In this document: piece after piece, positions 6,716-42,700 of the stretch | Layout of the letters: every line of letters starts with the position of its first letter | Position numbering within the stretch: position 1 is the first letter of the stretch | Source: an uncultured Pseudomonadales bacterium | Lineage (GTDB): Bacteria > Patescibacteriota > Microgenomatia > UBA1400 > PJMF01 | Length of the DNA: 64,000 nucleotides | Reading direction: 5' to 3' | Assembly: GCA_964406075.1 (NCBI GenBank) | Contig: CAYOQI010000004.1 | Location: 57,718 to 121,717, forward strand | Notes under the pieces: generated by a model | What the model was told of the DNA's origin: nothing | Databases searched by the model: none | The model's input: only the letters and a program-made list of their open reading frames with translations | Translations under genes and position numbers: made by a program

Positions 6716-7961
6716 CTACCAACCTTTTCCACTCTTTCCAAGTCAAAATCATCACCACCACTCGACTGATAATTCGAGCTACAGCGGCTCCCATCAGGCC
6801 AAAAACGGGTATTAGAAGCAAATCAAATAAGATCAGCGTACCACTGAGCAACCACCCAACTCTTGAGAAATACTGCGGATACTCAATGCTGTAAAACAGT
6901 GACGAAAATGGAACAGTCATGAAGAGTAAAAATGAAGAGATGGTTAAAATACGAAACTCAGTCAATGCCATCAAATACTCTGATCCAATTGTGTATTGAA
7001 GCAACCAGGGTGCAGTGATAATGACCGCTAAACAACTTCCCACACTTAACGCTACAATTCCCCAGCTTTTCTTCATAAACGCTTGTCGGTCAGCTTTTAA
7101 TATATATCGACTAGCTCGAATATTGAGCACATTCCCCAAACTAATTGCCAGCACACTAAATAAAAATGCTACTCGAGAAATTCCACCATAAATACCCGTC
7201 AAGTACACACCGAGGAACAGCTGAACAATGAGGACGTCAAGATTATCTGCAATCGCAATCGCAATGACTTGGACGCTATTATGTCGAAGAAACTGAGTCA
7301 AACGACCAGTCAATTCTTTCTCAAAGGTAAAGGTTGGACGTAAATATTTTTTTAACAAAAATAAAAATGGAAGTAATACTAACAACGGTAAAAGGTAGTA
7401 AATGACCGTAATACTAACGGCTGATTTCACTCCGAGAAAGATCAATCCTCCGACGATAAGTAACTTCAAAGCAGATTGCGAAATAAACATCACCATGGCT
7501 GGAATAAACCGATGAAGTGATTGATACAGACTCATACAATGTTCAAACCAGATCCCAATCAAGGCAAAAATCAACGCCGCGGGATAAATCCACCAGGCCG
7601 GAAGTTGGAATGCCCAAGTCACCACCGGAGAAAGCAATAATGCTGGAATCCACAGTAAGAGTAATTTCCACCGAAGACCAGTGATATGTTGCAAAACTTG
7701 TTGCACTTCGTGCTCTGATTTTTCTCTGGCTGTCGGCACAAATTTCTGCATGGCATACAGAAAGCCAGCATCACCAAACTTGATAAATAGCGAAAAAATA
7801 GCAAACACCAGAGAAAAGATTCCGAACTCGACCGGACCTAACATTCGAGAAATCAGGATAATTGTTAAAGCAGAAATACCTGTAGCCACCAGCGTTCCAC
7901 CAAATGTGATTACGCTCTGCTGAAAACCTTGAGAAGAAATGATTTTTTTGAAATCAACCAT
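6705..7961 (-). CDS. polysaccharide/oligosaccharide flippase (MOP/Wzx-like)
   Basis: 418 aa, hydrophobic throughout with about 12 helices. It is convergent with the GT4 gene and overlaps it by 11 nt. Confidence 0.7.
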   Translation of the reverse strand: MVDFKKIISSQGFQQSVITFGGTLVATGISALTIILISRMLGPVEFGIFSLVFAIFSLFIKFGDAGFLYAMQKFVPTAREKSEHEVQQVLQHITGLRWKLLLLWIPALLLSPVVTWAFQLPAWWIYPAALIFALIGIWFEHCMSLYQSLHRFIPAMVMFISQSALKLLIVGGLIFLGVKSAVSITVIYYLLPLLVLLPFLFLLKKYLRPTFTFEKELTGRLTQFLRHNSVQVIAIAIADNLDVLIVQLFLGVYLTGIYGGISRVAFLFSVLAISLGNVLNIRASRYILKADRQAFMKKSWGIVALSVGSCLAVIITAPWLLQYTIGSEYLMALTEFRILTISSFLLFMTVPFSSLFYSIEYPQYFSRVGWLLSGTLILFDLLLIPVFGLMGAAVARIISRVVVMILTWKEWKRLVVKN

Positions 7962-8040
7962 GACTGGAAGTATAAGAGGTACAAGGCACCAGATTCAAGC
8001 AGTAAGGAAAATATGATCATCATCTGGACCTATCTGCACG

Positions 8041-8817
8041 TTAATACTCAACCCGTCGAGCATACCGGAAGTAACGAACCGGAGAGTTCAAGAATTTACA
8101 GGTGTACAAAATAATATCGGCATCATAATCAGTGATTTCTTCACCTTCTTCACCAGCATAAATCTCATACTCATATCGACGTTTATCCCAGATCACTTCA
8201 AACGTATCCCCAACTTCTAATTTATTGAGGTTAAAAAAGGAATTTTGTCGACGATAGGCGTCTGTCCACTTGAGATATCCAAAGCGGTGAGCCAATAAAA
8301 TCATCGGACCAAGACTCTCTGGAGTAGCAAACTCTGTTTCTCGCCATACACCATGGCGCAAAGAATCTTCTGGCTCCACCGATTCTCCAATTTCAGTACG
8401 AACTCCAATCTTAGGAATGACTAACCAATTTCCATCTGGCAAATTTTCATCTCGAGGAGGGAGAACGATTTCAGAGTACAAAGTTCCCTCAGAATACAGT
8501 CCTCCCAGAGGTGATTCAGGTGTCTTGGCTTCAATTTGGACTCGTTCAACGGGTACAAATTTATAAAATGTATCTGGAAATAAGAATGCTGAAGCTACAA
8601 CGATTGACCCAAACAGTCCAATGGAAGAAATCAAGGAAATCAGATGTTTCCCAATTTTTCTTGGCTGTTTCTTAGGAAGAATAGTAGTTTGCACAGCAGA
8701 CCACATGAGCCACTCTTGGACTCTCTGTTCGCGTTGTCTGGCAAAATTGATCGTTGTATATAGCATATTAACTTGATTATTATAGGATACTTTTCCCGTT
8801 TTGTCCAGATACAACAC
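8041..8817 (-). CDS. sortase-family transpeptidase (membrane anchored)
   Basis: An N-terminal TM segment (LISLISSIGLFGSIVVASAFLF) is followed by the catalytic triad context LLAHRFG (His), IILYTCKF (TLxTC-like Cys) and a downstream Arg (RYFRYARR). The exact start is uncertain because there are several in-frame Met codons. Confidence 0.7.
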   Translation of the reverse strand: MLYLDKTGKVSYNNQVNMLYTTINFARQREQRVQEWLMWSAVQTTILPKKQPRKIGKHLISLISSIGLFGSIVVASAFLFPDTFYKFVPVERVQIEAKTPESPLGGLYSEGTLYSEIVLPPRDENLPDGNWLVIPKIGVRTEIGESVEPEDSLRHGVWRETEFATPESLGPMILLAHRFGYLKWTDAYRRQNSFFNLNKLEVGDTFEVIWDKRRYEYEIYAGEEGEEITDYDADIILYTCKFLNSPVRYFRYARRVEY

Positions 8818-8867
8818 ATATAAATAGCCTTGACTTTTTTATAAAGAGCAATGAGAATGATGTCTAT

Positions 8868-9197
8868 ATGACGGAAAAACACCAGCGCTCTGCAGCAACT
8901 ATTGCAATTGAAATAGGTTCAGGCCATCCTGTAACAGAACAAGTAACAAATATTAAGGTTACTTCTGATGACATAACCAGACTTCTGTTGAGAACCTCAT
9001 CAGAAGCAGAACTGCCAAATTTTGACCTTGAAAAAACTGTAACTCAACTTACGGAACTTCAAACTGCACTTCAGCAAGAACAATTCCCAAATGGTCCAGG
9101 AGAAATTGACCCTGAACTCAATACAGCATTGCGTGAACTTTCTTCGTTTTTAAACGGCATCAAACTGATGCAAAAGTTAGCTTCTCGACCAGAATAA
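8868..9197 (+). CDS. hypothetical protein
   Basis: 109-aa ORF, acidic and helical-looking, divergent from the sortase gene and upstream of the ATPase gene. No motif was recognised. Confidence 0.4.
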   Translation: MTEKHQRSAATIAIEIGSGHPVTEQVTNIKVTSDDITRLLLRTSSEAELPNFDLEKTVTQLTELQTALQQEQFPNGPGEIDPELNTALRELSSFLNGIKLMQKLASRPE

Positions 9198-9303
9198 AAT
9201 TCTCTACTTCATTGATCATTTTTAAAAAAAACATAGATCTTTAGAATTTTTTTAGTTATTACCCACTAGTTTCGTACACGCTTTCCGCTGTTATACTACA
9301 AGT

Positions 9304-11454
9304 ATGCCCAATACCACTCTGGTCACTCTCGAGCTTCGAACAGCGCGCGATGCCACCCATACGCCAGAGGCTGCTGCGCAACTTTTTGCTTCACTTCCCA
9401 ATCCACCTCATGGTTTTTTCAATCAATTCAAATCAGCCCCCTTATGTACATTTGAAATTTTGAATCAAGGTCAGGTGACGTACTTTTTTCTAACAGTTCC
9501 CGAAGATCTGGTGACATACTTTAAAAGCCAGCTTACTTCTAATTACCCTGAAATTTTAATCAAAAACCTCGAGCATAACCCGTTTGAAGAATTATATTCA
9601 GAACTCCCCAAAGCTTTAGGTGAGCTTCGATTAAGTGCGACAAACTACTTCTCGTTAAAAACGTATCAAGAATTCAAAGATATTGATCCTTTGTCTTCGA
9701 TCCTTTCTACCTTAACCCGAGCCATGGAAGGTGATACAGCATTGATTCAATTTCAACTCCGCAAAGATCGAGAAAGATGGAAAAATCATCCTTGGTCGCT
9801 AGTGCACGATGGTATTAAAAAAGCTGATGGTACTTTCTCACCCCACCCCCAAAAATCAGAAATTGAGGCCAAGATTACTCAAACCACGCTACAAACTGGA
9901 ATTCGTATTTTGATTCAAAGTCAAAATCAAACTCAGGCTGATCAGCTCATGATGAGTCTCACTCAGTCATTCCAAAGTGTTGATTCCCAACACAATCGAC
10001 TAACATTGAAGAAACCCGCTTTTTTTAATCGAAAAAAGTTTATAAAACAAACATTAGAGAGAACTTGGGAGCCTCCCAAACAATTTTTATCGCTGTCTGA
10101 ACTGGCAACGCTATACCATCTCCCCAACGTTCAACTCTCAACTGTCAAAAATATTGCCTGGGGAAAAACATTACTCGGTGAACCGCCTGAAAATTTACCA
10201 TTTTTTGAAGTGATACCAGAAGAACAACGGACCGAAGTCAATCTTTTTGGAACTACAGAATTTAAAAATCAAAAACGTATCTTCGGTATTCGTGAACCTG
10301 ATCTACGTCGTCACATGTATGTGATTGGGAAAAGTGGAACTGGAAAATCAACGTTGCTTGCCAACATGATCATCAATGATTTAAAACATGATAAAGGTGT
10401 TGCAGTCGTCGACCCTCATGGAGATTTGATTGAGACCGTCTTGAATTACATCCCTAAGCGACGTATGAACGATGTCATCTTAATCGATCCCACTGACCCA
10501 CATGCCGTAGTGAAGTTAAATCTGTTTGAAGGTGGAACGATGATTCACCGAGAACTCATTGCTTCAGGTATCGTAGCTATTTTTCAAAAACTCTATGCAA
10601 ATTCTTGGGGACCGAGACTCGAGTATATTTTACGAAATACCCTTTTAACTCTGCTGTCTCAAAATGCCAAATTGGAAGACATCCTGAGGATGCTGACTGA
10701 CAAGCGGTATCGTCAAAGAGTGATTGAAAACATGGATGATATGGTTTTGAAAAATTTCTGGGTGGAAGAATTTGAAAAACTACAGGATAAACAACGCACC
10801 GAAGCCATCTCTCCTATTTTGAATAAAGTTGGCCAGTTTGTGACATCTCCTTTGATTCGAAATGTGGTCAATACTAATCAAAGTTCATTTAGTATCGAAG
10901 ATGCCATGAACAACGGTCAGATCATGTTGATCAACCTATCCCAAGGAAAGTTAGGTGAAGATAATACTGCCTTGCTTGGAGCGATGTTGATTACCAAAAT
11001 TCAATTGGCTGCCATGAATCGTGTCTATATTCCTGAAGAAGAGCGTCGAGATTTTCACCTCTATATCGATGAGTTCCAAAACTTTGCTACCTCTAGTTTT
11101 ATCAAAATTTTATCTGAAGCCCGCAAGTATCGATTGAGTTTAATTTTAGCCAACCAATACATCGATCAAATTCCGGATGAAATTAAGGCTGCTATTTTTG
11201 GAAACGTCGGAAGTATGGCCAGTTTCATTCTAGGAGCTCAAGATGCGGAGTGGATGATGAAAGAATTTGGGAATAAATACACCCAAGAAGATTTGGTTTC
11301 TCTTGGACGTTATCAGATCATCGTCAAGCTCATGATTGATAATCACATGAGCCACCCATTTCCAGCAGAAACACTCGGCCTGGCATCATCATTTAATCAG
11401 AACAAGGAAAAGGTTATTCGTGTATCACGAGAACGCTACGCAAGAAAACGGTAG
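9304..11454 (+). CDS. P-loop NTPase of the FtsK/HerA/TraD-VirD4 (type IV coupling protein-like) superfamily
   Basis: 716 aa with Walker A (IGKSGTGKST), VAVVDPHGDL, and a Walker B-like FHLYIDEFQNF followed by LILANQY. The N-terminal ~330 aa matched nothing I recognise. Confidence 0.8.
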   Translation: MPNTTLVTLELRTARDATHTPEAAAQLFASLPNPPHGFFNQFKSAPLCTFEILNQGQVTYFFLTVPEDLVTYFKSQLTSNYPEILIKNLEHNPFEELYSELPKALGELRLSATNYFSLKTYQEFKDIDPLSSILSTLTRAMEGDTALIQFQLRKDRERWKNHPWSLVHDGIKKADGTFSPHPQKSEIEAKITQTTLQTGIRILIQSQNQTQADQLMMSLTQSFQSVDSQHNRLTLKKPAFFNRKKFIKQTLERTWEPPKQFLSLSELATLYHLPNVQLSTVKNIAWGKTLLGEPPENLPFFEVIPEEQRTEVNLFGTTEFKNQKRIFGIREPDLRRHMYVIGKSGTGKSTLLANMIINDLKHDKGVAVVDPHGDLIETVLNYIPKRRMNDVILIDPTDPHAVVKLNLFEGGTMIHRELIASGIVAIFQKLYANSWGPRLEYILRNTLLTLLSQNAKLEDILRMLTDKRYRQRVIENMDDMVLKNFWVEEFEKLQDKQRTEAISPILNKVGQFVTSPLIRNVVNTNQSSFSIEDAMNNGQIMLINLSQGKLGEDNTALLGAMLITKIQLAAMNRVYIPEEERRDFHLYIDEFQNFATSSFIKILSEARKYRLSLILANQYIDQIPDEIKAAIFGNVGSMASFILGAQDAEWMMKEFGNKYTQEDLVSLGRYQIIVKLMIDNHMSHPFPAETLGLASSFNQNKEKVIRVSRERYARKR

Positions 11455-12564
11455 TTAATTCGGTAGGGGTTCAACTTCTTGGAAACGATATGATTCTCGC
11501 TTGAGTGTATTTACTTGCTGACCAATACCTTCAAAAATCTCCTGCAGATCATTGGCATTCGTGGTTTCATACACTTTTGCAGGATCCGCAATCATTTCTC
11601 CCAATATTTTACTTCCCAACTCAAGCTGGGCTGAATTTAAAAATGATGTATTTCTATAAAATACTCCGAATAATTCATATCCGGCTTCACGCTGGTTTGT
11701 AGCAATCGTAATCGCATTATCTGAACACTCAGTGCCTGCACCCTCAGGGGCATAATTATCTAGTGACGCATAATCAAGTACTTCTCTGCTACACCCAAAA
11801 ATTGTTCCATTCGAACGAACTCCTCGATTCGCGACACCATCTGTAAAAAAGACAATGATATTTTTACGTGGAATAGGTGGTGGATCAGCTTTATCTAATT
11901 CTTCTGATGCTGATAGCATCCCAGCTCCAATATTGGTCAACTGTGTACCTCGTAAAATCTCAACTTCACCCACCCTATTAATAATCGATATTTTATCTGT
12001 ACTTAATTCATGATCAATTCTACCCTCGTTGGCATAACTAATGATGCTGATTCGATCATCTGGACCAAGTTCAATCTCATTTACCATATTTTGAATTGCA
12101 GTTTTTAAGGTATCAATGGTTGAATGCATACTACCTGAACGGTCAATCACAATTGCAATATCTAAAGGTAAATCTGCTGTGGAAGTTTCTTCGGTCACTT
12201 GGTACTGAGCTGTAAAACGCCGCTTGGCATCCCGAAAATTTGATCCGATATCAATATCGTATGTTTCAGATCCAGCATCATAGGTTAAATTTCTGGTAAC
12301 TCTAGTGTCACCAATCATGATTTCATCGGAATATGGATTTTCAGCCGGCCAACCAGGATACGTTCGTAATATTTGAAATGTGTCATACAAACCACCCTCA
12401 ACAGCATAGTACGCTTTTCTGGAATACTGCCCACTCAACGATCGTTCCGATCCAACTCTTGCTAGAAGCAACATACTAAAAAAAGCCAGTTCTAATAACA
12501 ACGCAATCACTAAAACGAGTAGTAGTGTTGACAAGCCTGATTGGTGTGAGAGTTTTTTTTTCAT
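11455..12564 (-). CDS. von Willebrand factor A (vWA) domain protein with an N-terminal hydrophobic, pilin/TadG-like anchor
   Basis: The MIDAS motif DIAIVIDRSGSM (DxSxS) is present, with downstream T (GTQLTNIG) and D (FFTDGVAN). The N-terminus is QSGLSTLLLVLVIALLLELAFF. Its stop codon abuts the stop of the convergent ATPase gene (TAG 11452-11454 / TTA 11455-11457). Confidence 0.8.
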   Translation of the reverse strand: MKKKLSHQSGLSTLLLVLVIALLLELAFFSMLLLARVGSERSLSGQYSRKAYYAVEGGLYDTFQILRTYPGWPAENPYSDEIMIGDTRVTRNLTYDAGSETYDIDIGSNFRDAKRRFTAQYQVTEETSTADLPLDIAIVIDRSGSMHSTIDTLKTAIQNMVNEIELGPDDRISIISYANEGRIDHELSTDKISIINRVGEVEILRGTQLTNIGAGMLSASEELDKADPPPIPRKNIIVFFTDGVANRGVRSNGTIFGCSREVLDYASLDNYAPEGAGTECSDNAITIATNQREAGYELFGVFYRNTSFLNSAQLELGSKILGEMIADPAKVYETTNANDLQEIFEGIGQQVNTLKRESYRFQEVEPLPN

Positions 12565-12576
12565 TTGATTTTAAAT

Positions 12577-13104
12577 CTATAAAACGATCTGGTTCCTCAT
12601 CGAGACCACGATCACTTTTTCAATTCTTTCCGGATTTCCTATCGCCATTTCCAATCCAATCCGAATTCTTAAGAGCGACAAAGTTCCTTCATCTTGAAGA
12701 TTCTCAATATCAAAATCTGTCACTCGAATGTTCGATGACAGTAATGTCTTCTCATTTTTCAAAAGTACTCCGTCTTCTACTCTATAGATCGTCGTAATGA
12801 GGACACCTGGTGTCTCTTCTTTTACTACTTCTAAGCTGTCTTCAACTCCCATGTCTGTCACAATTGCCGACTCCCCCCATTGAATTTCTTGGGTTAAATC
12901 ATTGGCTAAAGAAATCATCGAGCTTTGAATAACTTCTTGCCGATCTCCGGTTCTCTGAGAACGAAAGATGTCTGTCACAATCGCTAAAATGGAAGTTATC
13001 AGCACCACAATAATTAGGAGGAAAATAATCAACTCAAACAAGGTAAACCCCGCCTCAAGATCATGGTTCTTTTTATTGTTAACTGTTAACTGGTCGACTG
13101 ACAT
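12577..13104 (-). CDS. prepilin-type N-terminal cleavage/methylation domain protein (minor pilin / pseudopilin)
   Basis: The class III signal EAG|FTLFELIIFLLIIVVL is present, with Glu at +5. Confidence 0.8.
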   Translation of the reverse strand: MSVDQLTVNNKKNHDLEAGFTLFELIIFLLIIVVLITSILAIVTDIFRSQRTGDRQEVIQSSMISLANDLTQEIQWGESAIVTDMGVEDSLEVVKEETPGVLITTIYRVEDGVLLKNEKTLLSSNIRVTDFDIENLQDEGTLSLLRIRIGLEMAIGNPERIEKVIVVSMRNQIVL

Positions 13105-13634
13105 TATTCTTCCCCTTTCTTAATCACATACATTTCATACTCAACCTCTTGGGGAATACCATTAATATTCCAGCTCACTCGTGTAATAAGTCTTAAAGTA
13201 TCGGGATCATCGATAGCATCACTGACACTTTCATCCACAACTTGAAACGTAACCGGATCTCGAACAATGTTTTGAACAAATATTTCGCGAGTGAATTTAT
13301 CTTCCAACACCTCTGTTCCATTCAGTAACTGTAAAAATGGTGAATACTCAGGGTGATATGGCTCATCAGCATCAAAACTGGTACTAAACAACTCCCAATC
13401 GGTGGTAGAACTTGCCAAGTTGTACGCAATTTCCATCCCCTCTTGAGCATGTAAACCTGCTTCTACTCTTTCCCAAGAAGTACGTTGGGAAGAAAATACA
13501 TGTTGAAAAGAGATTATGAAAAAAACAATTAAAGAGATAAAAATCCCCATAGAAATGACAGCTTCCAGCAAGAGATATCCTTGCTCAGAGTGACGCTTAG
13601 AGTGGTTGTGGTACGGTTGTGTCAAGAACGCCAT
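13104..13634 (-). CDS. prepilin-type pseudopilin
   Basis: The N-terminus SEQG|YLLLEAVISMGIFISLIVFFII has Gly followed by Glu at +5. It overlaps the neighbouring pilin genes at both ends. Confidence 0.7.
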   Translation of the reverse strand: MAFLTQPYHNHSKRHSEQGYLLLEAVISMGIFISLIVFFIISFQHVFSSQRTSWERVEAGLHAQEGMEIAYNLASSTTDWELFSTSFDADEPYHPEYSPFLQLLNGTEVLEDKFTREIFVQNIVRDPVTFQVVDESVSDAIDDPDTLRLITRVSWNINGIPQEVEYEMYVIKKGEE

Positions 13635-14076
13635 AAGAATTTATACGAATCTGAGTGGTAAAACGGTTTGATTGTAGTTCAAGAGTTAAATCACTTCCCG
13701 GTGGATTTGTTTCTTGCGGGGACAATTCTAGTTGCCCCGTCAATTTCCGAAAAAAAACAAGGTCTGCGGTTGAATTTAATTGAATACCATATTGATAAGA
13801 AATTTGTTTATTTTCAGGCAAAAGCAAGTAGAATCCTGGAGAAACGAATGAGATACCATAACTCTCCCCGTTTTGAGCCACACGTGATTTTTGTTGTGCT
13901 TGCTTGAGCTCAGCCACGATTTTGTCGCGTTCCTTGGTCAATCGTTGGCGCTCTAAAGTTCCAAGTAAATATGGGGTGCTCGCACCAACCACCAACGCAA
14001 TAATTGTCATCACCACAATCAACTCCACTAAAGTGAAACCAGATGAATTCTGATGTTGGGCAGAACGAAAAAACAT
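13597..14076 (-). CDS. prepilin-type pseudopilin
   Basis: The N-terminus is NSSG|FTLVELIVVMTIIALVV, a canonical prepilin cleavage and methylation motif. Confidence 0.8.
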   Translation of the reverse strand: MFFRSAQHQNSSGFTLVELIVVMTIIALVVGASTPYLLGTLERQRLTKERDKIVAELKQAQQKSRVAQNGESYGISFVSPGFYLLLPENKQISYQYGIQLNSTADLVFFRKLTGQLELSPQETNPPGSDLTLELQSNRFTTQIRINSYGVLDTTVPQPL

Positions 14077-14122
14077 GTACGTATTTAGTGTACATGAGGA
14101 CTGTGAGGAAGAAAAGAAAGTG

Positions 14123-14189
14123 TGCCCCCACCGGGAACCTGCCTGCCGGCAGGCAGGTCGAAATTTGGATTTAGGGTTTAGGAAATTAG
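14123..14189 (-). other. tRNA-Arg 3'-half-like segment interrupted by a 20-nt palindromic insert
   Basis: The minus strand reads CTAATTTCCTAAACCCTAAATCCAAATTTCGAC[CTGCCTGCCGGCAGGCAGGT]TCCCGGTGGGGGCA. Outside the bracket it aligns with the 3' 44 nt of the adjacent tRNA-Arg (TTTCCTAAACC, TAAATCCA, TTCGAC and TCCCGGT are all shared). Confidence 0.6.
14133..14162 (-). repeat. conserved 30-nt GC-rich palindromic element, copy 1
   Basis: The plus strand reads GGGAACCTGCCTGCCGGCAGGCAGGTCGAA, a 9-bp stem ACCTGCCTG / CAGGCAGGT with a 4-nt loop. It is 29/30 identical to 62367..62396. Confidence 0.85.
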
Positions 14190-14261
14190 TGCCGATACCG
14201 GGAGTCGAACCTGGATTTAAGGTTTAGGAAACCTCCGTTCTATCCATTGAACTATATCGGC
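14190..14261 (-). tRNA. tRNA-Arg (anticodon CCT)
   Basis: Hand-folded cloverleaf: GCCGATA TA GTTC-AATGGAT-A-GAAC G GAGGT TTCCTAA ACCTT ... TTCGACT ... TATCGGC A. The acceptor strands are complementary. There is one A-C mismatch in the T stem and no encoded CCA. Confidence 0.8.
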
Positions 14262-14343
14262 TATGAGTATAAAAAATTGTCATCCATAGGCTGCCTGCCC
14301 GCCTTTGGAGGGATCGCCTTTGGCGGAAACTATGGGAGCAGTG
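14262..14343 (-). other. GC-rich structured spacer between tRNA-Pro and tRNA-Arg that begins with a tRNA-5'-end-like GCTCCCATAG
   Basis: The minus strand reads CACT GCTCCCA TAG TTTCCGCCAAAGGCGATCCCTCCAAAGGCGGGCAGGCAGCCTATGG ATGACAATTTTTTATACTCATA. It contains an outer stem CCATAG/CTATGG, the direct repeat CC(G/T)CCAAAGGCG twice, and a GGCAGGCAG motif shared with the palindromic element. Confidence 0.4.
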
Positions 14344-14415
14344 TCGGGGTGGAGGGAATTGAACCCTCTGCCTCTCGGTCCCGAACCGAGCGCTCTACCG
14401 ATGAGCCACACCCCG
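14344..14415 (-). tRNA. tRNA-Pro (anticodon CGG)
   Basis: Hand-folded: CGGGGTG TG GCTC-ATCGGTA-GAGC G CTCGG TTCGGGA CCGAG AGGCA GAGGG TTCAATT CCCTC CACCCCG A. All stems are perfectly paired. Length is 72 nt with no encoded CCA. Confidence 0.9.
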
Positions 14416-14482
14416 TATAAAAACTCTTACCAATTTCTCCACACAGGTGAAGATAATCCTTAGAATTTTACCACCCTGATCC

Positions 14483-14519
14483 AAAAACGGACGGATGAGT
14501 TCCGCCCGTTTCTTTTTTA
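14483..14519 (-). terminator. rho-independent (bidirectional-looking) terminator downstream of ndk
   Basis: A 10-bp stem AAACGGACGG / CCGCCCGTTT (one mismatch) with loop ATGAGTT. It is flanked by an A5 run on the plus strand (T5 on the minus strand) and by TCTTTTTT on the other side. It lies 13 nt after the ndk stop. Confidence 0.65.
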
Positions 14520-14531
14520 TTTAAAAAAAAG

Positions 14532-14999
14532 TTACTTCTTCATTTCGTAATCAGCGTAAATAACGCACTCCATAGCAGATGAGTAATCAAATAATTCATC
14601 TTTTCCGAAAACGATTTTAATTTCTCGCTCTGCATCTTCAGCAATGGCTGAAGCATGAATAAGATTGAATTGTTGACTCATTCCAAAATCACCTCGAATA
14701 GAACCAGCCTCTGCTTCACGTCCTAACGTCGTTCCAACCAATTTGCGAACAACTGGAACCGCATCAATACCTTGCCATGCCATTGCGACAATTGGCATCT
14801 GCCCCATGAATGATTTTAAATCGCCAAAGAAACTCTTATCTTTGTGCTCGGCATACCAATCAGACAACATCTCATCAGTCATGAGCACCATCTTAATTCC
14901 GACTAACTTGAGGCCTTTTCGTTCAAATCGAGAAATGATCTCTCCGATCAAACCTCGTTGCAAACCATCTGGTTTGACTAATACTGCTGTGCGTTGCAT
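14532..14999 (-). CDS. ndk: nucleoside diphosphate kinase
   Basis: The protein begins MQRTAVLVKPDGLQRGLIGEIISRFERKGLKLVG and contains RGDFG and NLIHAS (active-site His context). The 155-aa length is typical. Confidence 0.9.
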   Translation of the reverse strand: MQRTAVLVKPDGLQRGLIGEIISRFERKGLKLVGIKMVLMTDEMLSDWYAEHKDKSFFGDLKSFMGQMPIVAMAWQGIDAVPVVRKLVGTTLGREAEAGSIRGDFGMSQQFNLIHASAIAEDAEREIKIVFGKDELFDYSSAMECVIYADYEMKK

Positions 15000-21834: not shown

Positions 21835-22746
21835 TTACTTTTCTCGAGAAGGTTTGACTTCATACCCTCTTCCATCACTGATAATTTCAATGTGTCCATG
21901 TTGGCTTGTTGTGTATATTTTGATATTTCTATATCGAAGTATATCAATTACTCGAGTGTGAGGATGCCCAAAACTATTGTTTTTGCCCACTCCCATCAAT
22001 GCAGTTTCGGGTCTGGATGCCATGATGAATTCCTCATGTGTTGAGTTTTTAGAGCCGTGGTGGGATACTTTTATTACATCGATGTCCTTTATCACATGCT
22101 CTCTTGTTAGTGATAACTCAATCTCACTACTGATGTCACCAGCAGACAGCATCCTGAACTCCCCATATCCCACATAGCCAGATACAGAAAGGTCATTATC
22201 ATTTTTTTTACCTTTGTTTTTTACCATTCGATTTGGGTCTTGTTCTTGTTCGGTCTTTTTAAAAACAGAAATATCTTCTACCTCTGGCCAGATACTTAGA
22301 AAAGTCACGTCCGTTTCTCCATTTTCAATGGTTATTTTCTTTCCTTGAGTAAGTGTATGAGTCTCTATCTGGTATTTTTTTATTATTTCTTCAATTGCTT
22401 TACTGAGTTCTGTGGGCTCCCATGGTGGATTGCGAAAAATAACACCAACTTTATATGAAGTAACTATCGATTTAATCCCCGCAGCATGATCTGCATCATC
22501 ATGCGTTAATACTATTACTTCAATATTCCTGTCCCAAAATGGCATGAATTCCCCAAGACAGTCCAATACAGCGTCACTTGGTCCGGTATCAATCAATAGT
22601 TGATGAAAATGCAGATTGATAAGTATCGCATCTCCTTGGCCGACATCACACATGACCACATGAAGTTTATCATCAGGCCACTTCCACCAAATTAAAAAAA
22701 ACAGAAGTATTAATCCAATCAATAGTACATACAGAGCCTTTTTCAT
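21835..22746 (-). CDS. metallo-beta-lactamase fold protein corresponding to the ComEC C-terminal domain (split ComEC)
   Basis: An N-terminal TM segment is followed by VMCDVGQGDAILI, LTHDDADHAAG (HxHxDH-like) and VSHHGSKNS. Its start overlaps the stop of the comEC core gene by 4 nt. Confidence 0.8.
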   Translation of the reverse strand: MKKALYVLLIGLILLFFLIWWKWPDDKLHVVMCDVGQGDAILINLHFHQLLIDTGPSDAVLDCLGEFMPFWDRNIEVIVLTHDDADHAAGIKSIVTSYKVGVIFRNPPWEPTELSKAIEEIIKKYQIETHTLTQGKKITIENGETDVTFLSIWPEVEDISVFKKTEQEQDPNRMVKNKGKKNDNDLSVSGYVGYGEFRMLSAGDISSEIELSLTREHVIKDIDVIKVSHHGSKNSTHEEFIMASRPETALMGVGKNNSFGHPHTRVIDILRYRNIKIYTTSQHGHIEIISDGRGYEVKPSREK

Positions 22747-24254
22747 TTTGGTCTTTTATTAAATTGACGATGAAAGTAGAAAATTGAGAAAATTATTAAT
22801 CCATACACAATCACCATTTGCCTCCCAGTTACTGTAAACACCACACTTGCCCATTTTGGACTGCTAAAAATTTCCACCAACTCAAAAAATACAAATAATA
22901 TTGAATCACAGACCAAACCTAGTGCTTTAGCTAAAAAAGGATGGATAAGCCAAGATCCAACGATGATCACGCCAAAAGCCATCAAAATCGGTATAAATAG
23001 TAGTAAGACTGAGTTAGCTACAACTGAAATGAGGCTTAACCGCTCAAAGTGATACACAATTAAAGGAGTGGTGAGTAGTAATGCTGAAATGGTTGCAAAA
23101 AGATTTTCTTTGATGGAGTCAAAAAGGAACTTGCCATTCAATGACGTTGTTTTAAAGTTGAACTTCGCAAAAAATGTTTCAATGAGTGGTGAGATCCAAA
23201 TTAAACCGGCTGTTGCTAAAACTGAAAGTTGAAACGAGATTTCAAAAAGGAACCATGGATTCCATAATAAGAGTATCAAAATGGTTAACCAGAATGCCCA
23301 ACTCGTTTTTTGTTGACGTCCATATAGTTGTGATATGAGAACCACACTAATCATTAATGTCGCTCTGACAATCGGAGCTGTGAGTCCTCCAATAAATGCA
23401 TAGATCCAAATGAAAATGAGTGCAACAATTCTCCGCATTCTAAAACTGAGAAATAACTGAGTAAGCGAAAGAAGACTTGTGCTTACCACCATGACGTTGT
23501 ATCCTGATGCAACCAAAATATGAGTCATACCTACTATTTGGAATTGATCAGCACGATTTTGAGGCAAATTATCGTCGCCTCCAAAAACGACACCATAAAT
23601 AAAAGCTGCATGGGTCGGTAAAAGACTTTCGTTAAAAATTTTTCGTAACCACGTCTTGTTTTTCTCTCTCCAGGCTAAAAAGTGCCCTTCAACATATAAA
23701 CCCGAATCAGCGGAGTGATTTTTAACTTCAATTTCCTTTGAAATCAATCTAATTTGACACACAAATTTTTCTATCATTTGAGGACTATTACTGCCATCCT
23801 CCAACTCAGTATTTGTACTATTCTTACTACCCATTTTTAGCCTGGTACTATCACTACTGGTTGACGTTATTTCACTTGAGCTAATTGAGTGAAATACATT
23901 CTTTTTTTCTTCTACTTGAACTGTAATCAAGAGATCACTCAAAACTGTTGGATTTTCTAAGTCTTCAGAACTTTGTATCTGATACTGAGGAATTGTAAGG
24001 AACATCGCTCCTTTTCTTACGTAATACCCACCATGCTTACTCTGTTTTAGTTCCGAAGTATTTGCAGTAATCACAAAAGTGCTTCCGATTTCCTTTTCAC
24101 GACAGTATTCAGTTAACTGAATTAGGTGCAATAATATAAAAGATGTAATAAGCATCAATATGGATCTAAATGCATACTTTCGTAACGTGCTTCGTCGTCG
24201 TAATTCGTCCGTGAAATGAGTAACTTCTGGAGTTAATTGCCTTGAATGGCTCAT
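22743..24254 (-). CDS. comEC: ComEC/Rec2 DNA-uptake channel (N-terminal and Competence domains only)
   Basis: 503 aa. The polytopic C-terminal half carries GMTHILVASGYNVMVV, the competence-domain signature. It overlaps comEA by 4 nt. Confidence 0.8.
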   Translation of the reverse strand: MSHSRQLTPEVTHFTDELRRRSTLRKYAFRSILMLITSFILLHLIQLTEYCREKEIGSTFVITANTSELKQSKHGGYYVRKGAMFLTIPQYQIQSSEDLENPTVLSDLLITVQVEEKKNVFHSISSSEITSTSSDSTRLKMGSKNSTNTELEDGSNSPQMIEKFVCQIRLISKEIEVKNHSADSGLYVEGHFLAWREKNKTWLRKIFNESLLPTHAAFIYGVVFGGDDNLPQNRADQFQIVGMTHILVASGYNVMVVSTSLLSLTQLFLSFRMRRIVALIFIWIYAFIGGLTAPIVRATLMISVVLISQLYGRQQKTSWAFWLTILILLLWNPWFLFEISFQLSVLATAGLIWISPLIETFFAKFNFKTTSLNGKFLFDSIKENLFATISALLLTTPLIVYHFERLSLISVVANSVLLLFIPILMAFGVIIVGSWLIHPFLAKALGLVCDSILFVFFELVEIFSSPKWASVVFTVTGRQMVIVYGLIIFSIFYFHRQFNKRPK

Positions 24255-24865
24255 AAAGAAATCTGGTCTTTAATTTTTTGAAAAATACTTTCAGACAGAA
24301 CTTTCTTAGAAACTAACTCTTCAATCGAAGAATATGGGCGGTTTTCGATAATATTATTCGCTCTCGACTCACCAACACCTTCCAATGTATCAAGTTCCCC
24401 TAGTGTTGCAGAGTTAATACTAATTTTGGAAGAGTTTTTTTGAATAGAGCTCTGACGAGCTGACTCGGAGGAAGATGGAATATAAATTTTCTGTTGATCT
24501 TGAATGACTTCAGCCAAATTGATTTGCTGGGCAATATAAACAGCATCTGCATGAGAATTCCACCCACCAGCAAGTGCAATTGCATCTTTTACTCGACTAC
24601 CTTCAGACAAAGTATATACTCCTGGTTTTTGGACTGCGCCACTTATATCCACTGTTATTTTACTTGTGACTTGAGTGCTTATTTCCTCTTTCACATCTGT
24701 ATCAGTAACAGTAATACTGTCATTCGTTGATCCAACAGCCCTGAGTTGTACAAAACCGAATCCAAATCCGCCTAAGCCAAGCAGGATGAGCAAAAGAGAC
24801 CAGATCGGAGGGAGGGTTGAAAAGAATGAAGAGGACGGATGAACAGAATCACCAGAATCTTCCAT
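24251..24865 (-). CDS. comEA: ComEA DNA receptor (TM + SLBB + helix-hairpin-helix)
   Basis: A TM anchor is followed by VQKPGVYTLSEGSRVKDAIALAGG (SLBB-like) and a C-terminal INSATLGELDTLEGVGESRANNIIENRPYSSIEEL (HhH_3). Confidence 0.8.
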   Translation of the reverse strand: MEDSGDSVHPSSSFFSTLPPIWSLLLILLGLGGFGFGFVQLRAVGSTNDSITVTDTDVKEEISTQVTSKITVDISGAVQKPGVYTLSEGSRVKDAIALAGGWNSHADAVYIAQQINLAEVIQDQQKIYIPSSSESARQSSIQKNSSKISINSATLGELDTLEGVGESRANNIIENRPYSSIEELVSKKVLSESIFQKIKDQISL

Positions 24866-36771: not shown

Positions 36772-39700
36772 ATGATTCCCAGTGATCTGCCCCCACTAGT
36801 CTCCATTCATGAAGCTGCAAAGTTTCTTAAAGTTTCGACAAAAACTTTACGTCGTTGGGAAGATCGACACATTTTGTTACCAGCTCGAACTTCTGGCGGA
36901 CACCGAAGATATGATCTCAACGAGATCAAGGCCTTCAAAAAACAAAAGTATTCCAGTGGCTCAGTCGTTCATCAAACAGTACTCCCACTTGCAACAGTTA
37001 AACCACTTGAATCAAAAGTGGTTGACCAAACAGATATTCTTCAAGTTTCCAAACCACTCATCATCAAACCCATTGATCATTTTCCGTTAAAAACACCGAA
37101 AGTAACTGCATACAAGCCATTCCCAGAGACAATTACGAAAGTAAAAAAAACATTTGAGTTTCCTTCATTCCAAGTTAGAAACAACATTCCTCCTCAGGTC
37201 GAAATTCCCACAGAGAAAATAACGGATTTCCCTATTCCAACCACTCCACCTTCTTGGGTGTCTGTCTCAATCGTGTTGGCTTTTTTCTTTATTTCAGCTG
37301 CAGCATTCAGTATTCAAGGTTTCTTCAAGCCTCTAGTTGCAAAACATCCAGTCCTAAGTGAAATTGCGTATTCCCTCGAAAAGAGATTGGCAATAAATGT
37401 TTTTCCTAAAAAAGAAGTGATGATTGTTCAGGCTAACGATAGCAAAGTCTTGGGAGAACACTCCAGCTTAGATTTTTTAAAATTTAATATTAATGTCGAG
37501 TCTTCTTTTCGCGAGTTTGCGAACTTCCTCTCAGATGTCAATGTCGAAGGAAATGCCACGGTCAGTGGAATTTTAAGTGTGAACTCCGGCTCACTTCAAA
37601 CAACTTCTGAAACAGCTCAAGTTTTTGAAAACGCTTCTACTCTCTCAATTGCTGCGAACACTGGCACCACAACAGTGAACAACTCACTAAACGTGGGTGG
37701 AAATTTAACAGTAATTGGTTTGATAAATGATATTGCCGGTACTCTCAATCTTTCCGGTAATACTTTGACTTCAACTGGTGATCTAGTTATTGATCCTGGC
37801 GGAGGTGGTGTTTCGATTGGAGATGCCACTCCAGGAATTATAGATATGACAGATGGAGATTTTTTTGTTTCAGGCGATGTAGAAATTGACGGCATTTTAT
37901 ACGCACCAACTGCAAATATATCAGGCACTGCGAGTATCGGCACTGTCTTGGTGAATTCCGACAGTATCAATGACTTTACTGGAACAGGCTTGACTGTCTC
38001 TGATGGAGCTCTTCAAACCACAATTGGCACATCGGTTTCTTCCTCTGAAATTGAGAATGACACAATTTTGGAAGAAGATCTTAAAGTCTCAAATGATGCG
38101 GTAAATGGTTATGCTCTTACCTATGATAATTCGACCGGCGGATTCACTTGGACAGATATTGCATCCAGTCAAGTTTGGATCGATGGTGGCTCAGTCTACT
38201 ATCAAGCCACGACCACCGATGATGTGGTGATTGGAGGTACTTCCAGCTTGGGTAAACTCTCGGTCGATGGGGATAGTGATGAAATCCAACTCGTAGTTCA
38301 AGGCAATGGGACGCAAACATCAAACATCTTCGTAGTTGAAGACTCCAGTGGGACAGATCTTTTTGTGGTGAACAATACTGGAAGCATCACCATTGCGTCT
38401 GGCCAAGATCTCACCATTGGGTCGATTGGATTGAATGATGTCGGAACAGATAATGTCACTTCTGGAGCATCACTTATCGGAGTGTTTGATGAATTCACTA
38501 ACTCCTCAGCTACGACACTACAAGATGTCCTCGATGATTTTGACGCTGCTATTGGTGGTGGAGCTTCAAAGTGGGCTCAAGATACTGGCTTTGTTTACCT
38601 AGCAAGTACGACTGACGACATCGTTGTCGGTGGTGACACAATAGCTAATGGTTCTTTGTATTTTGATGAATCTGCGGGAAGTCTGTATCTCGGAACTAAT
38701 GAGGCTTTGAACGGCTCACTTACTCTCTACTCTTCAGGAGCAGGGATAACTGACCCTACGATTACCGCAGATGCTACAGGAAATGCGAATATCACTACCT
38801 CTGCCACAGCCTTAGTAAATATATTAGCGGGTAATTTGAAAGTGGGTAATGGCGCGCCCACTCAGACCTTAAATGGTGAAGATGCCTATGTCGAAGGCAC
38901 GCTTGAAGTTGATGGGATACTCTACGCTGGTTCTGCCACTACAGCCTTAACCGTAGCAAGCGGACTGATCGATGCTGATGCAATTGCTTTAACTCCAACC
39001 ACTGAGGGATTAAGTGGTATCTCATCAGGCTCAGGTTTAGCGGTATACAGCGACACACTTTCTCTTCTCCAAGGTTGTGGTGATGGTCAAGTTTTGAAGT
39101 GGAACGAAACAAATGATTCATGGGAATGTGCAAATGATACCGGCGCTTCTTTTGCCGTGGTAAACATTGAGAACAATGATGTTGCAGTCGGGAGCAATGT
39201 CGATTCCATTGATTTCTCTACTGATTTCTTAGTCACTGCTTCCCCATCAAACGAAGCCAATGTTGCAATCGCCGATGACATTTTAAACTTCACAGAATTC
39301 TCTGATGCCCTTACCTTAGATGCCGCTACCACCATCACCAATTCTTTAGCCGGCAACTTGACAATCGACCTCACTTCAACCGGTGATTTCGTCATTGCAG
39401 ATGGTGGAGTTGCCTTCTTTACCTTTACTGATGGTGGTGCTTTAACTCAGGCTGGAAGCGGTCAAATAACCTTGACTGGAAACGTTGATGCTACAAATGG
39501 TCTTGATATAACAGGCGCTTCCCTAACGGTTGGTGGTGCAAATGCCACGATCACCACAGGTGGAGCGTTAACATTGGCATCAACAATTACAGCAGCGACC
39601 GACGAGACCATTAACGGCGTTGATATCAATGCCGGTACCGTTTCAGATGTTGTGAATTTAACTATTAATTCAGGTGGTGACTTAACCATTGGTTCAATCG

Positions 39701-42700
39701 GTTTGAATGATGTGGGTTCAGACAACATCACTTCCGGTGCTTCCTTAGTGGGAGTGTTTGATGAATTCACCAATTCAAGTGCAACAACTGTTCAAGACGT
39801 CTTAGATGATCTCGATGCAGCAATTGGTGCTGGTGCAAGTAAATGGACTGACTCTGGTACTGTTACCTACCTTACTGACACGACTGACAGTATTACGATT
39901 GGGAGTTCAACCGAACTTGGTAAACTTGCAGTCGATGGAGATGCTGATGAAGTTCAGTTATTAGTTCAAGGTAATGGAACCCAGACCAATGCCCTTGCAA
40001 TTTTTGAAGATTCAACAGGTGCTGACCAATTTAGCATTAGTAATACTGGAAACGTGACGTTAGCTGGAGATTTAACAATCAGTGGTGGAAATATTACCTC
40101 TGCAACTACCTTTGATTCCACCGCAACCGTAACAGGAACATTAACAGCAAATGGCACTTTAGATGCCAATGGGATCTTCACACTTGGTGACAATGGCGAA
40201 ACCGGTGCAATTGATACTTCTGATTGGGATATTTCTGCCACCGGTGTACTCACTGGAGTGAGTGGTATTACCACTGATGGTGGATACACTCAATCAGGCG
40301 CGACCGGAAATACATTTTCAGGCAATGTCGATGCAACTTCTGGCCTTGATGTCACAGGTGCTTCTCTGACTGTCGGTGGTGCAAATGCCACGATCACTAC
40401 AGGTGGAGCGTTAACTTTAGCCTCCACAATTACAGCCAACACAGATGAAACAGTGAACGGAGTTGATATTAATGCAGGGACTGTTTCTGATGTGGTGAAT
40501 TTAACAATCAATTCTGGTGGTGACTTAACTATCGGGTCAATCGGACTCAACGATATTGGTTCAGACAACATCACTTCCGGTGCTTCTTTAGTTGGAGTCT
40601 TCGATGAGTTTACTAATTCAGATGGTCTTAATGTACAAGATGTCCTTGATGACTTTGATGCTGCTATTGGTGCAGGTTCTAGTAAATGGACAGACTCTGG
40701 TACTGTTACCTACTTAACTTCTACTACTGATGACTTAGCCGTGGGAGGATCCACTGTCCTGGCTTCCATGTTTGGCATTGATGAATCGGCAGGAAATTTC
40801 TACTTTGGCTATGACAACTCAGTTTCCCCTACCTTCAACTTTGAAGCCTCTGATGGTGATGCTGGTGAATTTGGATTTAATACCAATGACACATTCTTCT
40901 TCTCCAATGCACGAGTGGGTGTCGGAACGACCAATCCTTCAAGGTTATTACATGTAAGTGATTCTTCAGGGTCGCCCGCCATTAGAGTTACTGGTTCAGC
41001 CAGTGGTTCACCGTTTATTGAGTTCGAACAGTCAGGAAATGTTAGAGGTGTTTTTGGTTATGATAATACAACTTCGACCTTGCAACTTGCATATGGAGCG
41101 AATTTTAGTACTACCTTCCTATCACTAAATAGTTCTGGTTCTATGGGTCTTGGAACCTCTGCACCTGACGCCGCATTAGAAATCAATCATGCTACGGGTG
41201 ATAGTTTACGACTTACATACAATGACTCAAATGGTTCCGCTACCAGCTACACAGACTTCTCTCTCGCCTCTGATGGAGATTTAACAATTGATAGTGCTGG
41301 TGGTGCCATAAACCTTGGTGCAAATGATGACCTCAATATCACTGCTTCTACTGACTTAATCTTTGGAGGATCAACCTCTCTTGGTGAATCTACAGGAGCG
41401 GCTGATTCAGGAGCTTTCTTAACTGGTATTTTTGATGAATTTGATAACTCTGCTTCCTCTACAGTACAAGATGTGATTGATGATATTGATGCAGCTATTG
41501 GAAATAGAACATACACTGCTGATAACTACGTGACTGATGGTCAAACTCTGACAGCTTCCATCAATGCCCTTGATATTGCACTTGCCTCTGTTTCAGGCGG
41601 TGCGTACACAGGATGGAGTATTGACGTGGATGATGACGGAGCTGATCCAATTGCAAGTGGAGCTACGCTGAATGTTGATGCTGGAAGTAATGTGTCATTG
41701 ACCTACACAGCTGGTACCAATACGCTTTTAATTGCTGCTACTGATACAAATACTACCTACACAGCTGGGAATGATCTTGATCTTACCGGAACGGTCTTCA
41801 GCCTAGAAACCACCCTCGATTTTGTCGACACAATTAATTTAGCTGGGACAGGAACTCTCAACGGTCTTGATGCCGTTGATGCTACTGGAGAAAATACTAT
41901 TGAGGCCCTGATCTTTGATACAGATGCTGAAAGTATTACCGGAGTCTGGACGGTAGCTGACTCGACCAACTTCAGAATTGGTACCGGTGGTGACTTAACC
42001 TTCGCTCATGATGGTTCAAACTCTACTATTACTAGTACGACGGGTGACTTACTTATCGACAATACAAATGCCACCGGTTCAACCATTTTTGACCTGGGCA
42101 CAGATACTTCAGCCACTGATTTCCTTATTAGGAATGATTCTGGCACTCAACTCTTAAGCTTGAACGGTGCCGGGGCACTTCAGCTTGGAAGCAATGGTCA
42201 AGATGGTCAGTTCATCCTCTACAACGAACTAGGTGTAACAGATTACACAAACACAATTAACCCAAGTGGTTCTCAGTCCCAAAACATCACCTATACCCTA
42301 CCTCCTGATGATGGTGGCGCTGATAATTACGTTCTCACCACGGATGGAAATGGCGTATTGCAATGGGAATCCGTCACTGGTGCCGGTGGAGGAAGTGGAG
42401 ATCTGACAGATATCATTGCTGGGAACTACATTGATGTTCAAAACGCTGGTGGTCCGAGTCCTACTGTAGACTTTGATCCAACCGAACTTGAAGGAGTGAC
42501 TTGGGGTGCCTCATCTGGCGCCAGTGAACCTTTTACCTGGACGTATGATGTGACGAACTCCGGAACTGATCCTTCCATCACTTTCGCGGACAATGCCATC
42601 ACTCTCACAGCAGCAACTCTTACAGCTAGTGGTGATTTAACAATTCAAGGTGGAGACGCAACGCTTGGAATGGCTGGAACCGATGGTTCGCTCACTTTTT

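Follow-up and report, generated by a model that had tools for sequence, protein, structure and literature searches.

The window analysed here is a 64-kb stretch of DNA, and the genes of interest occupy positions 8041-14076. Four of them lie on the minus strand as a compact cassette. Pilin A (13597-14076, 159 aa) is the first gene; it is GspH/FimU-like and carries a class III signal in which G13 precedes FTLVE. It is followed by two further minor pilins, pilin B (13104-13634, 176 aa; G19 before YLLLE) and pilin C (12577-13104, 175 aa; G19 before FTLFE). The fourth and last gene (11455-12564) encodes a 369-aa vWA protein with a non-canonical signal, G10 before LSTLL. The overlap between genes A and B amounts to 38 nt; at the B-C junction, the start codon of C sits on the stop codon of B in a TAATG, and a gap of only 12 nt separates pilin C from the vWA gene. 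The cassette genes overlap or abut and look translationally coupled. The plus-strand ATPase gene (9304-11454, 716 aa) converges on the cassette so closely that its stop codon abuts that of the vWA gene. Divergent from the ATPase lies a gene for a membrane-anchored sortase (8041-8817, minus strand). Between the two sits a plus-strand ORF of 109 aa (8868-9197), which has no Pfam or NCBIfam match and no homologue in any fetched locus. An unrelated 320-aa gene takes its position in the related locus L005. The ORF is not conserved and may not be a gene. A promoter and terminator scan of positions 7900-14600 gave counts at or below shuffled expectation.

An earlier note on this DNA had described three overlapping genes with canonical prepilin signals, and a motif scan of all six-frame ORFs confirms them: nowhere in the window apart from pilins A, B and C does it detect a prepilin-type N-terminus. 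As the sole prepilin motifs in 64 kb, they are therefore not a chance occurrence. The same note had placed a co-directional MIDAS-containing vWA protein beside them and a sortase just beyond the ATPase; both proteins score above their Pfam cut-offs. It was likewise correct that the pilus machinery is missing from the window. Among the ORFs examined in the 64-kb window we found no PilB-, PilT-, PilC-, PilM- or PilD-like protein, hence no prepilin peptidase, and neither a major pilin nor any further pilin.

All three pilins have a glutamate at mature position +5 (FTLVE, YLLLE and FTLFE in A, B and C), and their hydrophobic segments span residues 10-41, 18-50 and 14-50, respectively. Pilin A matches the Pfam N_methyl model with 33.9 bits (cut-off 21.2) and the NCBIfam gspH model TIGR01708 with E=1.7e-11 and 44.4 bits, the latter below the cut-off of 80. 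A profile built from four pilin A orthologues aligns with solved pilins over their alpha1N segment (E=7e-7). In a PDB profile search, pilins B and C each match solved pilins weakly and in the alpha1N segment alone, so that an assignment to GspI or GspJ is impossible; their heads show no sequence match to GspI/J or PilV/W. Pilin C also has weak NCBIfam matches to HpsC and ComGF/GE. Positional orthologues of pilin A occur in loci L005, L089 and L092. Those of pilin B are found in the same three loci (2.6e-57, 6.6e-37 and 1.5e-6, respectively), as are those of pilin C, for which L090 contributes a fragment.

The vWA protein resembles a pilin in its own right. Its vWA domain is recognized by the Pfam models VWA (55.1 bits, cut-off 23.8) and VWA_2 (50.3 bits, cut-off 27). 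Residues G10, E56, D141, S143, S145 and D242 are invariant in 28 relatives, four of them (D141, S143, S145 and D242) belonging to a complete MIDAS whose T210 is nearly invariant as well. G10 lies within a hydrophobic segment (residues 5-39), and the mature N-terminus, LSTLL, has no glutamate at position 5. Absence of Glu5 is expected of a GspK/PilX-type cap subunit, as is known for GspK. Full-length relatives are 360-440 aa long, and 7 of 28 match PilX_N (PF14341), the best with E=7.9e-8; the family member in L093 is annotated as PilX_N. A direct Pfam scan at E<=10 finds no PilX_N match in residues 1-126 of the window protein, nor in its closest orthologue, and we assign the window protein provisionally to the PilX_N type because homologous members of its family match that model. 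Roughly 40 representatives of the family (50% identity level) appear among the best 150 matches. Proteins of about 460 aa retrieved by a word-indexed homologue search were rejected as relatives because they have nothing but the vWA domain in common with the window protein and lie in different gene contexts; that search yielded one true orthologue.

The fold supports the same view. An AlphaFold2 model, which was built from a two-sequence alignment and is of moderate confidence (pLDDT 69), places two helices (residues 9-43 and 49-68) and four strands ahead of a vWA fold. The top Foldseek matches of this model are the pilus-tip vWA adhesins SpaC, PitA and Mfa5, together with Streptococcus sanguinis PilB (7b7p; E=2.5e-9 over about 350 columns). 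A PDB profile search with the vWA family also finds PilB (E=4e-13). From sequence and model, the vWA protein is predicted to be itself a fourth pilin, of PilX_N type, and a tip adhesin. With a pilin-like vWA protein, the unit would comprise four minor-pilin genes, one of them supplying the tip adhesin.

Three characterized systems parallel this arrangement. S. sanguinis PilB is a bimodular minor pilin for which a tip location and an adhesin role have been proposed (PMC8179133). Like the window protein, it comes from a monoderm-type envelope and joins an N-terminal pilin module to a vWA domain whose MIDAS is complete. The two are only about 14% identical in sequence, and they differ at the N-terminus, which is a canonical class III signal in PilB but of predicted PilX_N type, without Glu5, in the window protein. 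Unlike PilB, the latter comes last among the four genes of a minor-pilin operon. That layout recalls FimU-PilV-PilW-PilX with PilY1 in Pseudomonas and Myxococcus (PMC7541494, PMC5979040), and GspH-I-J-K of type II secretion: in each case four small pilin genes stand in a row, headed by a GspH/FimU-like member and ending in a PilX/GspK-like one that has no Glu5. The association with a vWA-bearing adhesin is also common to the window cassette and the FimU-PilVWX/PilY1 systems, since PilY1 of P. aeruginosa and Legionella bears a vWA domain (PMC7541494, PMC8179133), and PilY1 together with the minor pilins primes the pilus (PMC7541494). In the window, however, the PilX-like pilin itself carries the vWA domain as a fused module, whereas the FimU-PilVWX systems have a separate beta-propeller PilY1. 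The cassette differs further from FimU-PilVWX and GspHIJK in that no machinery genes adjoin it and that the heads of pilins B and C are unmatched to PilV/W and GspI/J. The third parallel, likened here by description, is with another member of the Patescibacteria. In the saccharibacterium Nanosynbacter lyticus TM7x, as in the window, the largest minor pilin of the locus bears a C-terminal accessory domain; PilX2 of this organism has a non-canonical signal peptide and is a proposed tip adhesin (PMC11623550). The accessory modules of PilX1 and PilX2 are a beta-jelly-roll and a beta-propeller, in contrast to the vWA module of the window pilin.

Signal motifs, operon structure, gene order, family and domain content and fold resemblance, all of them observed, point to one explanation that we consider very probable: positions 11455-14076 of the minus strand form a self-contained operon whose four genes supply the core minor pilins for a type IV pilus of an ultrasmall bacterium, a Microgenomates-type member of the Patescibacteria. 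This bears out the pilus-tip reading first suggested for these genes, given a four-gene cassette that recurs in six loci, a vWA protein of probable PilX_N type and a model that resembles tip vWA adhesins. Pilins A, B and C, with their canonical class III signals and Glu5, would be joined by the vWA protein, which retains the cleavage glycine, lacks Glu5, is PilX_N-like and would therefore act as the GspK/PilX-type subunit that caps the complex. Its vWA/MIDAS module would replace a separate PilY1-type adhesin. For processing, tip location, priming role and ligand, we infer the remaining steps by analogy, our reading covering the 64-kb window and assuming a working pilus in the source genome. 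On the model of GspH-I-J-K and FimU-PilVWX/PilY1, all four proteins would be processed by a prepilin peptidase whose gene lies elsewhere. Within the membrane, the four pilins would next form a complex to prime the polymerization of a major pilin, also encoded elsewhere. Carried to the filament tip, this complex may present its metal-dependent vWA adhesin to a host cell or another surface ligand.

Could the cassette instead supply the minor pilins of a ComG-like competence pseudopilus, serving DNA uptake rather than adhesion? Patescibacteria depend on the uptake of DNA and nucleotides, which counts for this alternative. All three pilins have weak NCBIfam matches among ComGD, ComGE and ComGF, and genes for ComEC and ComEA lie about 8-10 kb from the cassette in the window, as ComEC/ComEA likewise do in L001. 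Every one of the ComG matches, however, falls far below its cut-off, and ComEC/ComEA are close by as members of an extended housekeeping backbone, which L001 and L006 keep although they lack the cassette. The vWA/MIDAS modules known from pili (PilB, PMC8179133; SpaC, PitA and Mfa5) are protein or surface adhesins, not DNA receptors, and T4P-2 pilin mutants of TM7x do not lose competence (PMC11623550). We therefore regard a competence pseudopilus as unlikely. Adhesion and competence roles are not mutually exclusive.

The neighbourhood of the minor-pilin operon had suggested a more unusual possibility, namely that pilins, vWA protein, ATPase and sortase form one new machine in which the ATPase powers assembly or secretion and the sortase provides anchoring. 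The genes do physically adjoin, with abutting stop codons of the ATPase and vWA genes, and two close relatives of the window, L005 and L089, keep its arrangement, as probably do two others (P0004/P0152 and P0010/P0154). A comparison of loci tells against the proposal. The cassette recurs in the same order, A-B-C-vWA, in six loci: the window and its close relatives L005 and L089, and the distant loci L092, L093 and L094. Order and one-to-one orthology hold together in the window, L005, L089 and L092; L093 has the same gene layout, and in L094 two called genes precede the vWA gene. Only in the window's own clade (window, L005 and L089) does the cassette adjoin the ATPase. It stands without a nearby ATPase or sortase in L092, L093 and L094, and conversely L006/L007 and L001 retain the backbone but not the cassette, with ATPases that are 78% and 71% identical, respectively, to that of the window.

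Checking for co-occurrence in related genomes, as the earlier note had proposed, thus gives a divided answer: the A-B-C-vWA block recurs, and so does the sortase-ATPase pair, but in none of 80 species-representative loci does a prepilin gene lie within 3 kb of the ATPase, or a vWA gene within 10 kb of it. The proposed combination of all four components fails at this point, because synteny between ATPase and pilins, whose absence the note had itself named as refuting, is not conserved beyond the window's clade. Three further features disagree with a single machine. The ATPase is convergent with the cassette and therefore not co-transcribed with it; its family is homologous to conjugative coupling ATPases and not to the PilB/GspE assembly ATPases; and neither the vWA protein nor the pilins carry an LPXTG-type sorting signal. 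By synteny, the one-machine proposal is largely refuted, and we give it almost no weight. The same comparisons indicate that the cassette is independent of the ATPase and the sortase, both of which appear to be inherited with the local backbone and not as parts of the pilin module. Where the flanking ATPases share 86% identity, the vWA proteins share 48%: the cassette diverges fast, as expected of surface proteins.

What, then, is the ATPase? Its description as a 716-aa P-loop protein with a TraD-type domain holds: the VirD4/TrwB-type nucleotide-binding domain, with an all-alpha insert, matches Pfam TrwB_AAD_bind with 48.1 bits (cut-off 20.5) and DUF87 with 31.9 bits. The N-terminal region, by contrast, had been thought impossible to place, and a profile check of this part identifies it (about residues 1-330) as Pfam DUF8128 (PF26449), for which a literature search returned no papers. 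The predicted fold of these 330 residues is a soluble alpha/beta domain (pLDDT about 90), which may be EccE-like. No transmembrane anchor is apparent: across all 716 aa, no 19-residue segment reaches a Kyte-Doolittle value of 1.6. The protein aligns end to end, N-domain included, with a DUF87 protein from a plasmid conjugation operon of Bacillus subtilis, which is encoded beside a relaxase gene, in the position of a coupling protein. Coupling proteins (VirD4/TrwB/TraD) share the NTPase domain with the window ATPase, which differs from them in lacking both an anchor and a conjugation-gene context. Unlike the Bacillus homologue, encoded with conjugation genes, it lies among housekeeping genes in the window, as it does in the 13 loci whose genes we inspected one by one, and no relaxase or other T4SS gene was found nearby in any of these. 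We considered whether it belongs to a mobile element and rejected this, because the genes on either side are conserved housekeeping genes and neither an integrase nor a relaxase is encoded in the window. A 717-aa ORF at 60143-62296 was also discarded as a candidate paralogue: it encodes a TPR membrane protein. The window ATPase belongs to the orphan VirD4-like homologues reported from Patescibacteria, which number 5,713 in 2,918 genomes, with only 148 near virB4 (PMC12102498). Judged by its domains and neighbours, the ATPase is an orphan soluble relative of monoderm conjugative coupling proteins, core to Patescibacteria.

The sortase matches the Pfam Sortase model with 35.6 bits (cut-off 26.6), and all sortase class models, D and E included, score far below their cut-offs. 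The protein has one transmembrane segment (residues 57-84) and a single cysteine, Cys240, in a TLxTC-like ILYTC motif; translation probably begins at an internal ATG, for a product of about 241 aa. A functional pairing of this sortase with the DUF8128 ATPase, for example as a relic or exapted piece of monoderm conjugation or secretion that handles sortase-anchored proteins, has some appeal. L005, L006, L001 and L089 each have a sortase orthologue upstream of the ATPase, the divergent pair thus recurring beyond the window, and 19 of the 68 GTDB loci with enough upstream sequence show the adjacency. The pair is also found on two different backbones, one running from polysaccharide genes to sortase-ATPase-NDK and the other reading Obg-Rho-M23-sortase-ATPase-RadA. 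Yet most loci have no such adjacency, including the intermediate relatives L002, L004, L010, L013 and L054 and all Parcubacteria/Saccharibacteria-type loci, and long-range housekeeping synteny could account for the persistence of the pair. A search of all window ORFs for LPXTG-like C-terminal sorting signals yielded no credible sortase substrate; the signal is absent from the giant proteins of the window as well as from the vWA protein and the pilins. On balance, there is a small chance that the two proteins work as a pair. Broader still is the idea that the ATPase is a motor exapted from monoderm conjugation to serve surface structures, either in DNA import or export via a pilus or ComEC, or in the export of sortase-anchored proteins. 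It draws on the recurrent divergent sortase, on the pilus-tip operon that lies tail to tail with the ATPase in this clade and on ComEC/ComEA about 10 kb away, and we think it improbable. If true, it would give a role to an ATPase family with thousands of homologues in Patescibacteria.

For Patescibacteria, which live attached to other cells, no attachment device is better supported than type IV pili. We conclude that the cassette is most probably an ordinary four-gene pilus-tip operon, paralleled by S. sanguinis PilB, FimU-PilVWX/PilY1 and PilX1/2 of Saccharibacteria. A false lead is thereby removed, the neighbouring ATPase not being a pilus motor, and the remaining puzzle narrows to an orphan coupling-protein homologue and its recurrent sortase neighbour. 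The cassette establishes a family of PilX-type pilins that carry a vWA/MIDAS adhesin of their own; searches for canonical prepilin motifs would miss them because Glu5 is absent. The rapid divergence of the family, and its presence or absence among close relatives, fit a determinant of host range or ligand specificity.

The region comprises seven ORFs. Three small genes on the minus strand encode proteins with the N-termini G|FTLVE (pilin A, 13597-14076(-)), G|YLLLE (pilin B, 13104-13634(-)) and G|FTLFE (pilin C, 12577-13104(-)), with a hydrophobic helix after each. When all ORFs of the window were scanned for prepilin motifs, only these three proteins matched, which confirms the three overlapping genes with prepilin signals described in an earlier note. 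Genes A and B overlap by 38 nt, B and C meet at TAATG, and 12 nt separate C from the gene of the 369-aa vWA protein (11455-12564(-)). Because the small genes overlap or abut, we assign them to one operon that includes the vWA gene. Pilin A is GspH-like (E=1.7e-11, under the curated cut-off), and sequence searches gave no family assignment for the heads of pilins B and C. A 716-aa ATPase (9304-11454(+)), a 109-aa ORF (8868-9197(+)) and a sortase (8041-8817(-)) complete the region.

Upstream of the pilin A gene lie tRNA-Arg and tRNA-Pro, followed by housekeeping genes: NDK, HhH-GPD glycosylase, M16 peptidase, a Wzy_C protein, ArgRS, a split ComEC, ComEA, LeuRS and ATP synthase. The stretch between tRNA-Arg and the pilin A gene contains a perfect, GC-rich palindrome, CCTGCCTGCCGGCAGGCAGG (14100-14150(-)), a possible terminator for the tRNA transcript. 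ComEC, with ComEA directly upstream, is seemingly divided into two ORFs (21835-24865(-)), a Competence-domain part (503 aa) and a metallo-beta-lactamase part (303 aa); a similar separate metallo-beta-lactamase ORF occurs in two comparison loci (L006/L007). The window also holds two giant ORFs, one of 5133 aa with a MerR-type HTH at its start (36772-52173(+)) and one of 2506 aa with eight Laminin_G_3/ConA-like lectin repeats and clostridial-toxin receptor-binding-like domains (52448-59968(+)). GC content across them is ~0.45, versus ~0.39 elsewhere.

Sequence and predicted fold identify the vWA protein as the fourth pilin of the cassette. It begins MKKKLSHQSG|LSTLLLVLVIALLLE..., and residues 5-39 are hydrophobic. 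A two-sequence profile, used in an exhaustive HMMER search, returned many relatives (360-440 aa) whose alignment runs from about residue 5 through to the C-terminus. An alignment of 28 of these relatives shows no variation at Gly10, Glu56 and the MIDAS residues D141/S143/S145/D242, nor in a C-terminal E..P motif. Pfam PilX_N is matched by 7 of the 28 members (best E=7.9e-8) and not by the window protein itself, whose PilX_N assignment is therefore by homology. The AlphaFold model (pLDDT 69) features a long alpha1 helix, a second helix and a four-stranded sheet, then the vWA fold. Its best Foldseek matches are SpaC and PitA, vWA tip adhesins of sortase pili; Mfa5, the vWA tip adhesin of type V pili; and the type IV minor pilin PilB of S. 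sanguinis, which the vWA sequence profile also matched. The window protein has the invariant glycine and lacks Glu5, as does the capping subunit GspK. The signal peptide of Saccharibacteria PilX2 is likewise non-canonical (PMC11623550).

Three small pilin genes leading into a vWA pilin gene recur at five further loci (L005, L089, L092, L093 and L094), two of them with ATPases 86% (L005) and 76% (L089) identical to that of the window, and three of them distant (L092, L093, L094); in L094, just two genes are called upstream of the vWA gene. All-against-all phmmer comparison revealed strict positional orthology (A-A, B-B, C-C) across the window, L005, L089 and L092. The conserved unit is the four genes, which supports and sharpens the earlier reading of a pilus-tip module. 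The cassette diverges much more rapidly than what surrounds it: in the same comparison, identity is 48% for the vWA protein and 86% for the ATPase. In L005, the closest relative, a 127-aa 23S_rRNA_IVP/bAvd-type gene (10172-10555(-)) is inserted between the ATPase and vWA genes, unlike in the window, where their stop codons abut at 11454/11455. The cassette adjoins a serine recombinase in L093, and CysRS and a PAS histidine kinase with its response regulator in L092 and L094. The latter pair precedes the cassette divergently (L092, 4317-6560 and 3944-4312; L094, 1009-3420 and 564-932), a layout recalling that of P. aeruginosa, where fimS-algR lies beside fimU-pilVWXY1E.

The ATPase and the sortase are not part of this cassette. 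L006/L007 (ATPase 78% identical) and L001 (71%) keep an intact sortase-ATPase-NDK-M16-Wzy backbone and lack the cassette; in L002 and L004, the ATPase sits among unrelated housekeeping genes. Across 80 species-representative ATPase loci spanning many Patescibacteria classes, none had a prepilin ORF within 3 kb of the ATPase, and none had a vWA gene within 10 kb of it. Conversely, L092, L093 and L094 carry the cassette without ATPase or sortase. Since cassette and ATPase are found apart in both directions, ATPase-pilin synteny is not conserved, the outcome that the earlier note said would refute the link, and the proposed combination of pilins and vWA protein with ATPase and sortase is not supported.

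Names on the ATPase homologues are Patescibacterial (for example, Woesebacteria, Pacebacteria and Cerribacteria). The N-terminal 330 residues, which had seemed unplaceable, can be placed: precomputed annotation of an identical protein and of homologues gives Pfam DUF8128 (PF26449), which our own Pfam scan did not report. In the C-terminal half, the Pfam matches are TrwB_AAD_bind and DUF87. No transmembrane segment was found in the protein, and its model (pLDDT 82; N-domain ~90) combines an alpha/beta N-domain with an NTPase bearing an all-helical insert. A tblastn search of plasmids recovered full-length relatives at ~25% identity. One, on a B. subtilis plasmid, aligns to residues 10-686 (E=3e-43), and directly downstream of its gene come a replication-relaxation (relaxase) gene, conjugal-transfer genes and a VirB4-sized ATPase; from this alignment and context, the two-domain architecture is therefore assigned to the monoderm conjugative coupling ATPases. 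A 2025 survey counted 5,713 VirD4-type homologues in 2,918 Patescibacteria genomes, just 148 of them near virB4, found the ML1 homologue dispensable for epibiotic growth and suggested exaptation (PMC12102498). The window gene belongs among these orphans.

The neighbouring gene encodes a genuine sortase-domain protein that has one membrane anchor and whose only Cys belongs to a TLxTC-like motif; none of the curated sortase classes fits it. As listed from GTG 8817, the ORF is probably too long at its 5' end (8766-8817(-)), with an internal ATG giving ~241 aa; orthologues have 236-242 aa, and a promoter-like match (11/12) lies inside the listed ORF at 8807-8779. That sortase and ATPase form a functional pair is improbable: in the window clade and at 19 of the 68 GTDB loci whose upstream sequence is long enough, the ATPase has a divergent sortase orthologue upstream, on two different backbones, but this adjacency is missing from intermediate and distant relatives and is accompanied by long-range housekeeping synteny. 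A search of the window for a sortase substrate found none. Pacebacteria-type genomes (L016-L026, L035, L042, L052) have the backbone pilins ... TPR membrane protein-Obg-Rho-M23-(sortase)-ATPase-RadA, in which clusters of two or three GspG-like pilin genes (~190 aa) take a fixed place ~6-10 kb upstream of the ATPase; these clusters may be major-pilin candidates there.

The sequence motifs, operon structure, conserved order, domain content and fold similarity of the cassette are directly seen; analogy with GspHIJK, FimU-PilVWX/PilY1 (PMC7541494) and PilB (PMC8179133) suggests its processing, priming, tip location and ligand binding. A prepilin peptidase would cleave the four products, which would nucleate filament assembly and stay at the tip; there, the vWA pilin, lacking Glu5, would cap the fibre and bind a ligand through its MIDAS site. 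Instead of or alongside adhesion, the cassette may, less probably, have a role in DNA uptake. The orphan coupling-protein homologue is the more unusual object, already on record in the literature. Minor pilins with a vWA adhesin are a known kind, to which this putative core minor-pilin operon adds a modular member, in a lineage for whose episymbiotic lifestyle such pili matter.
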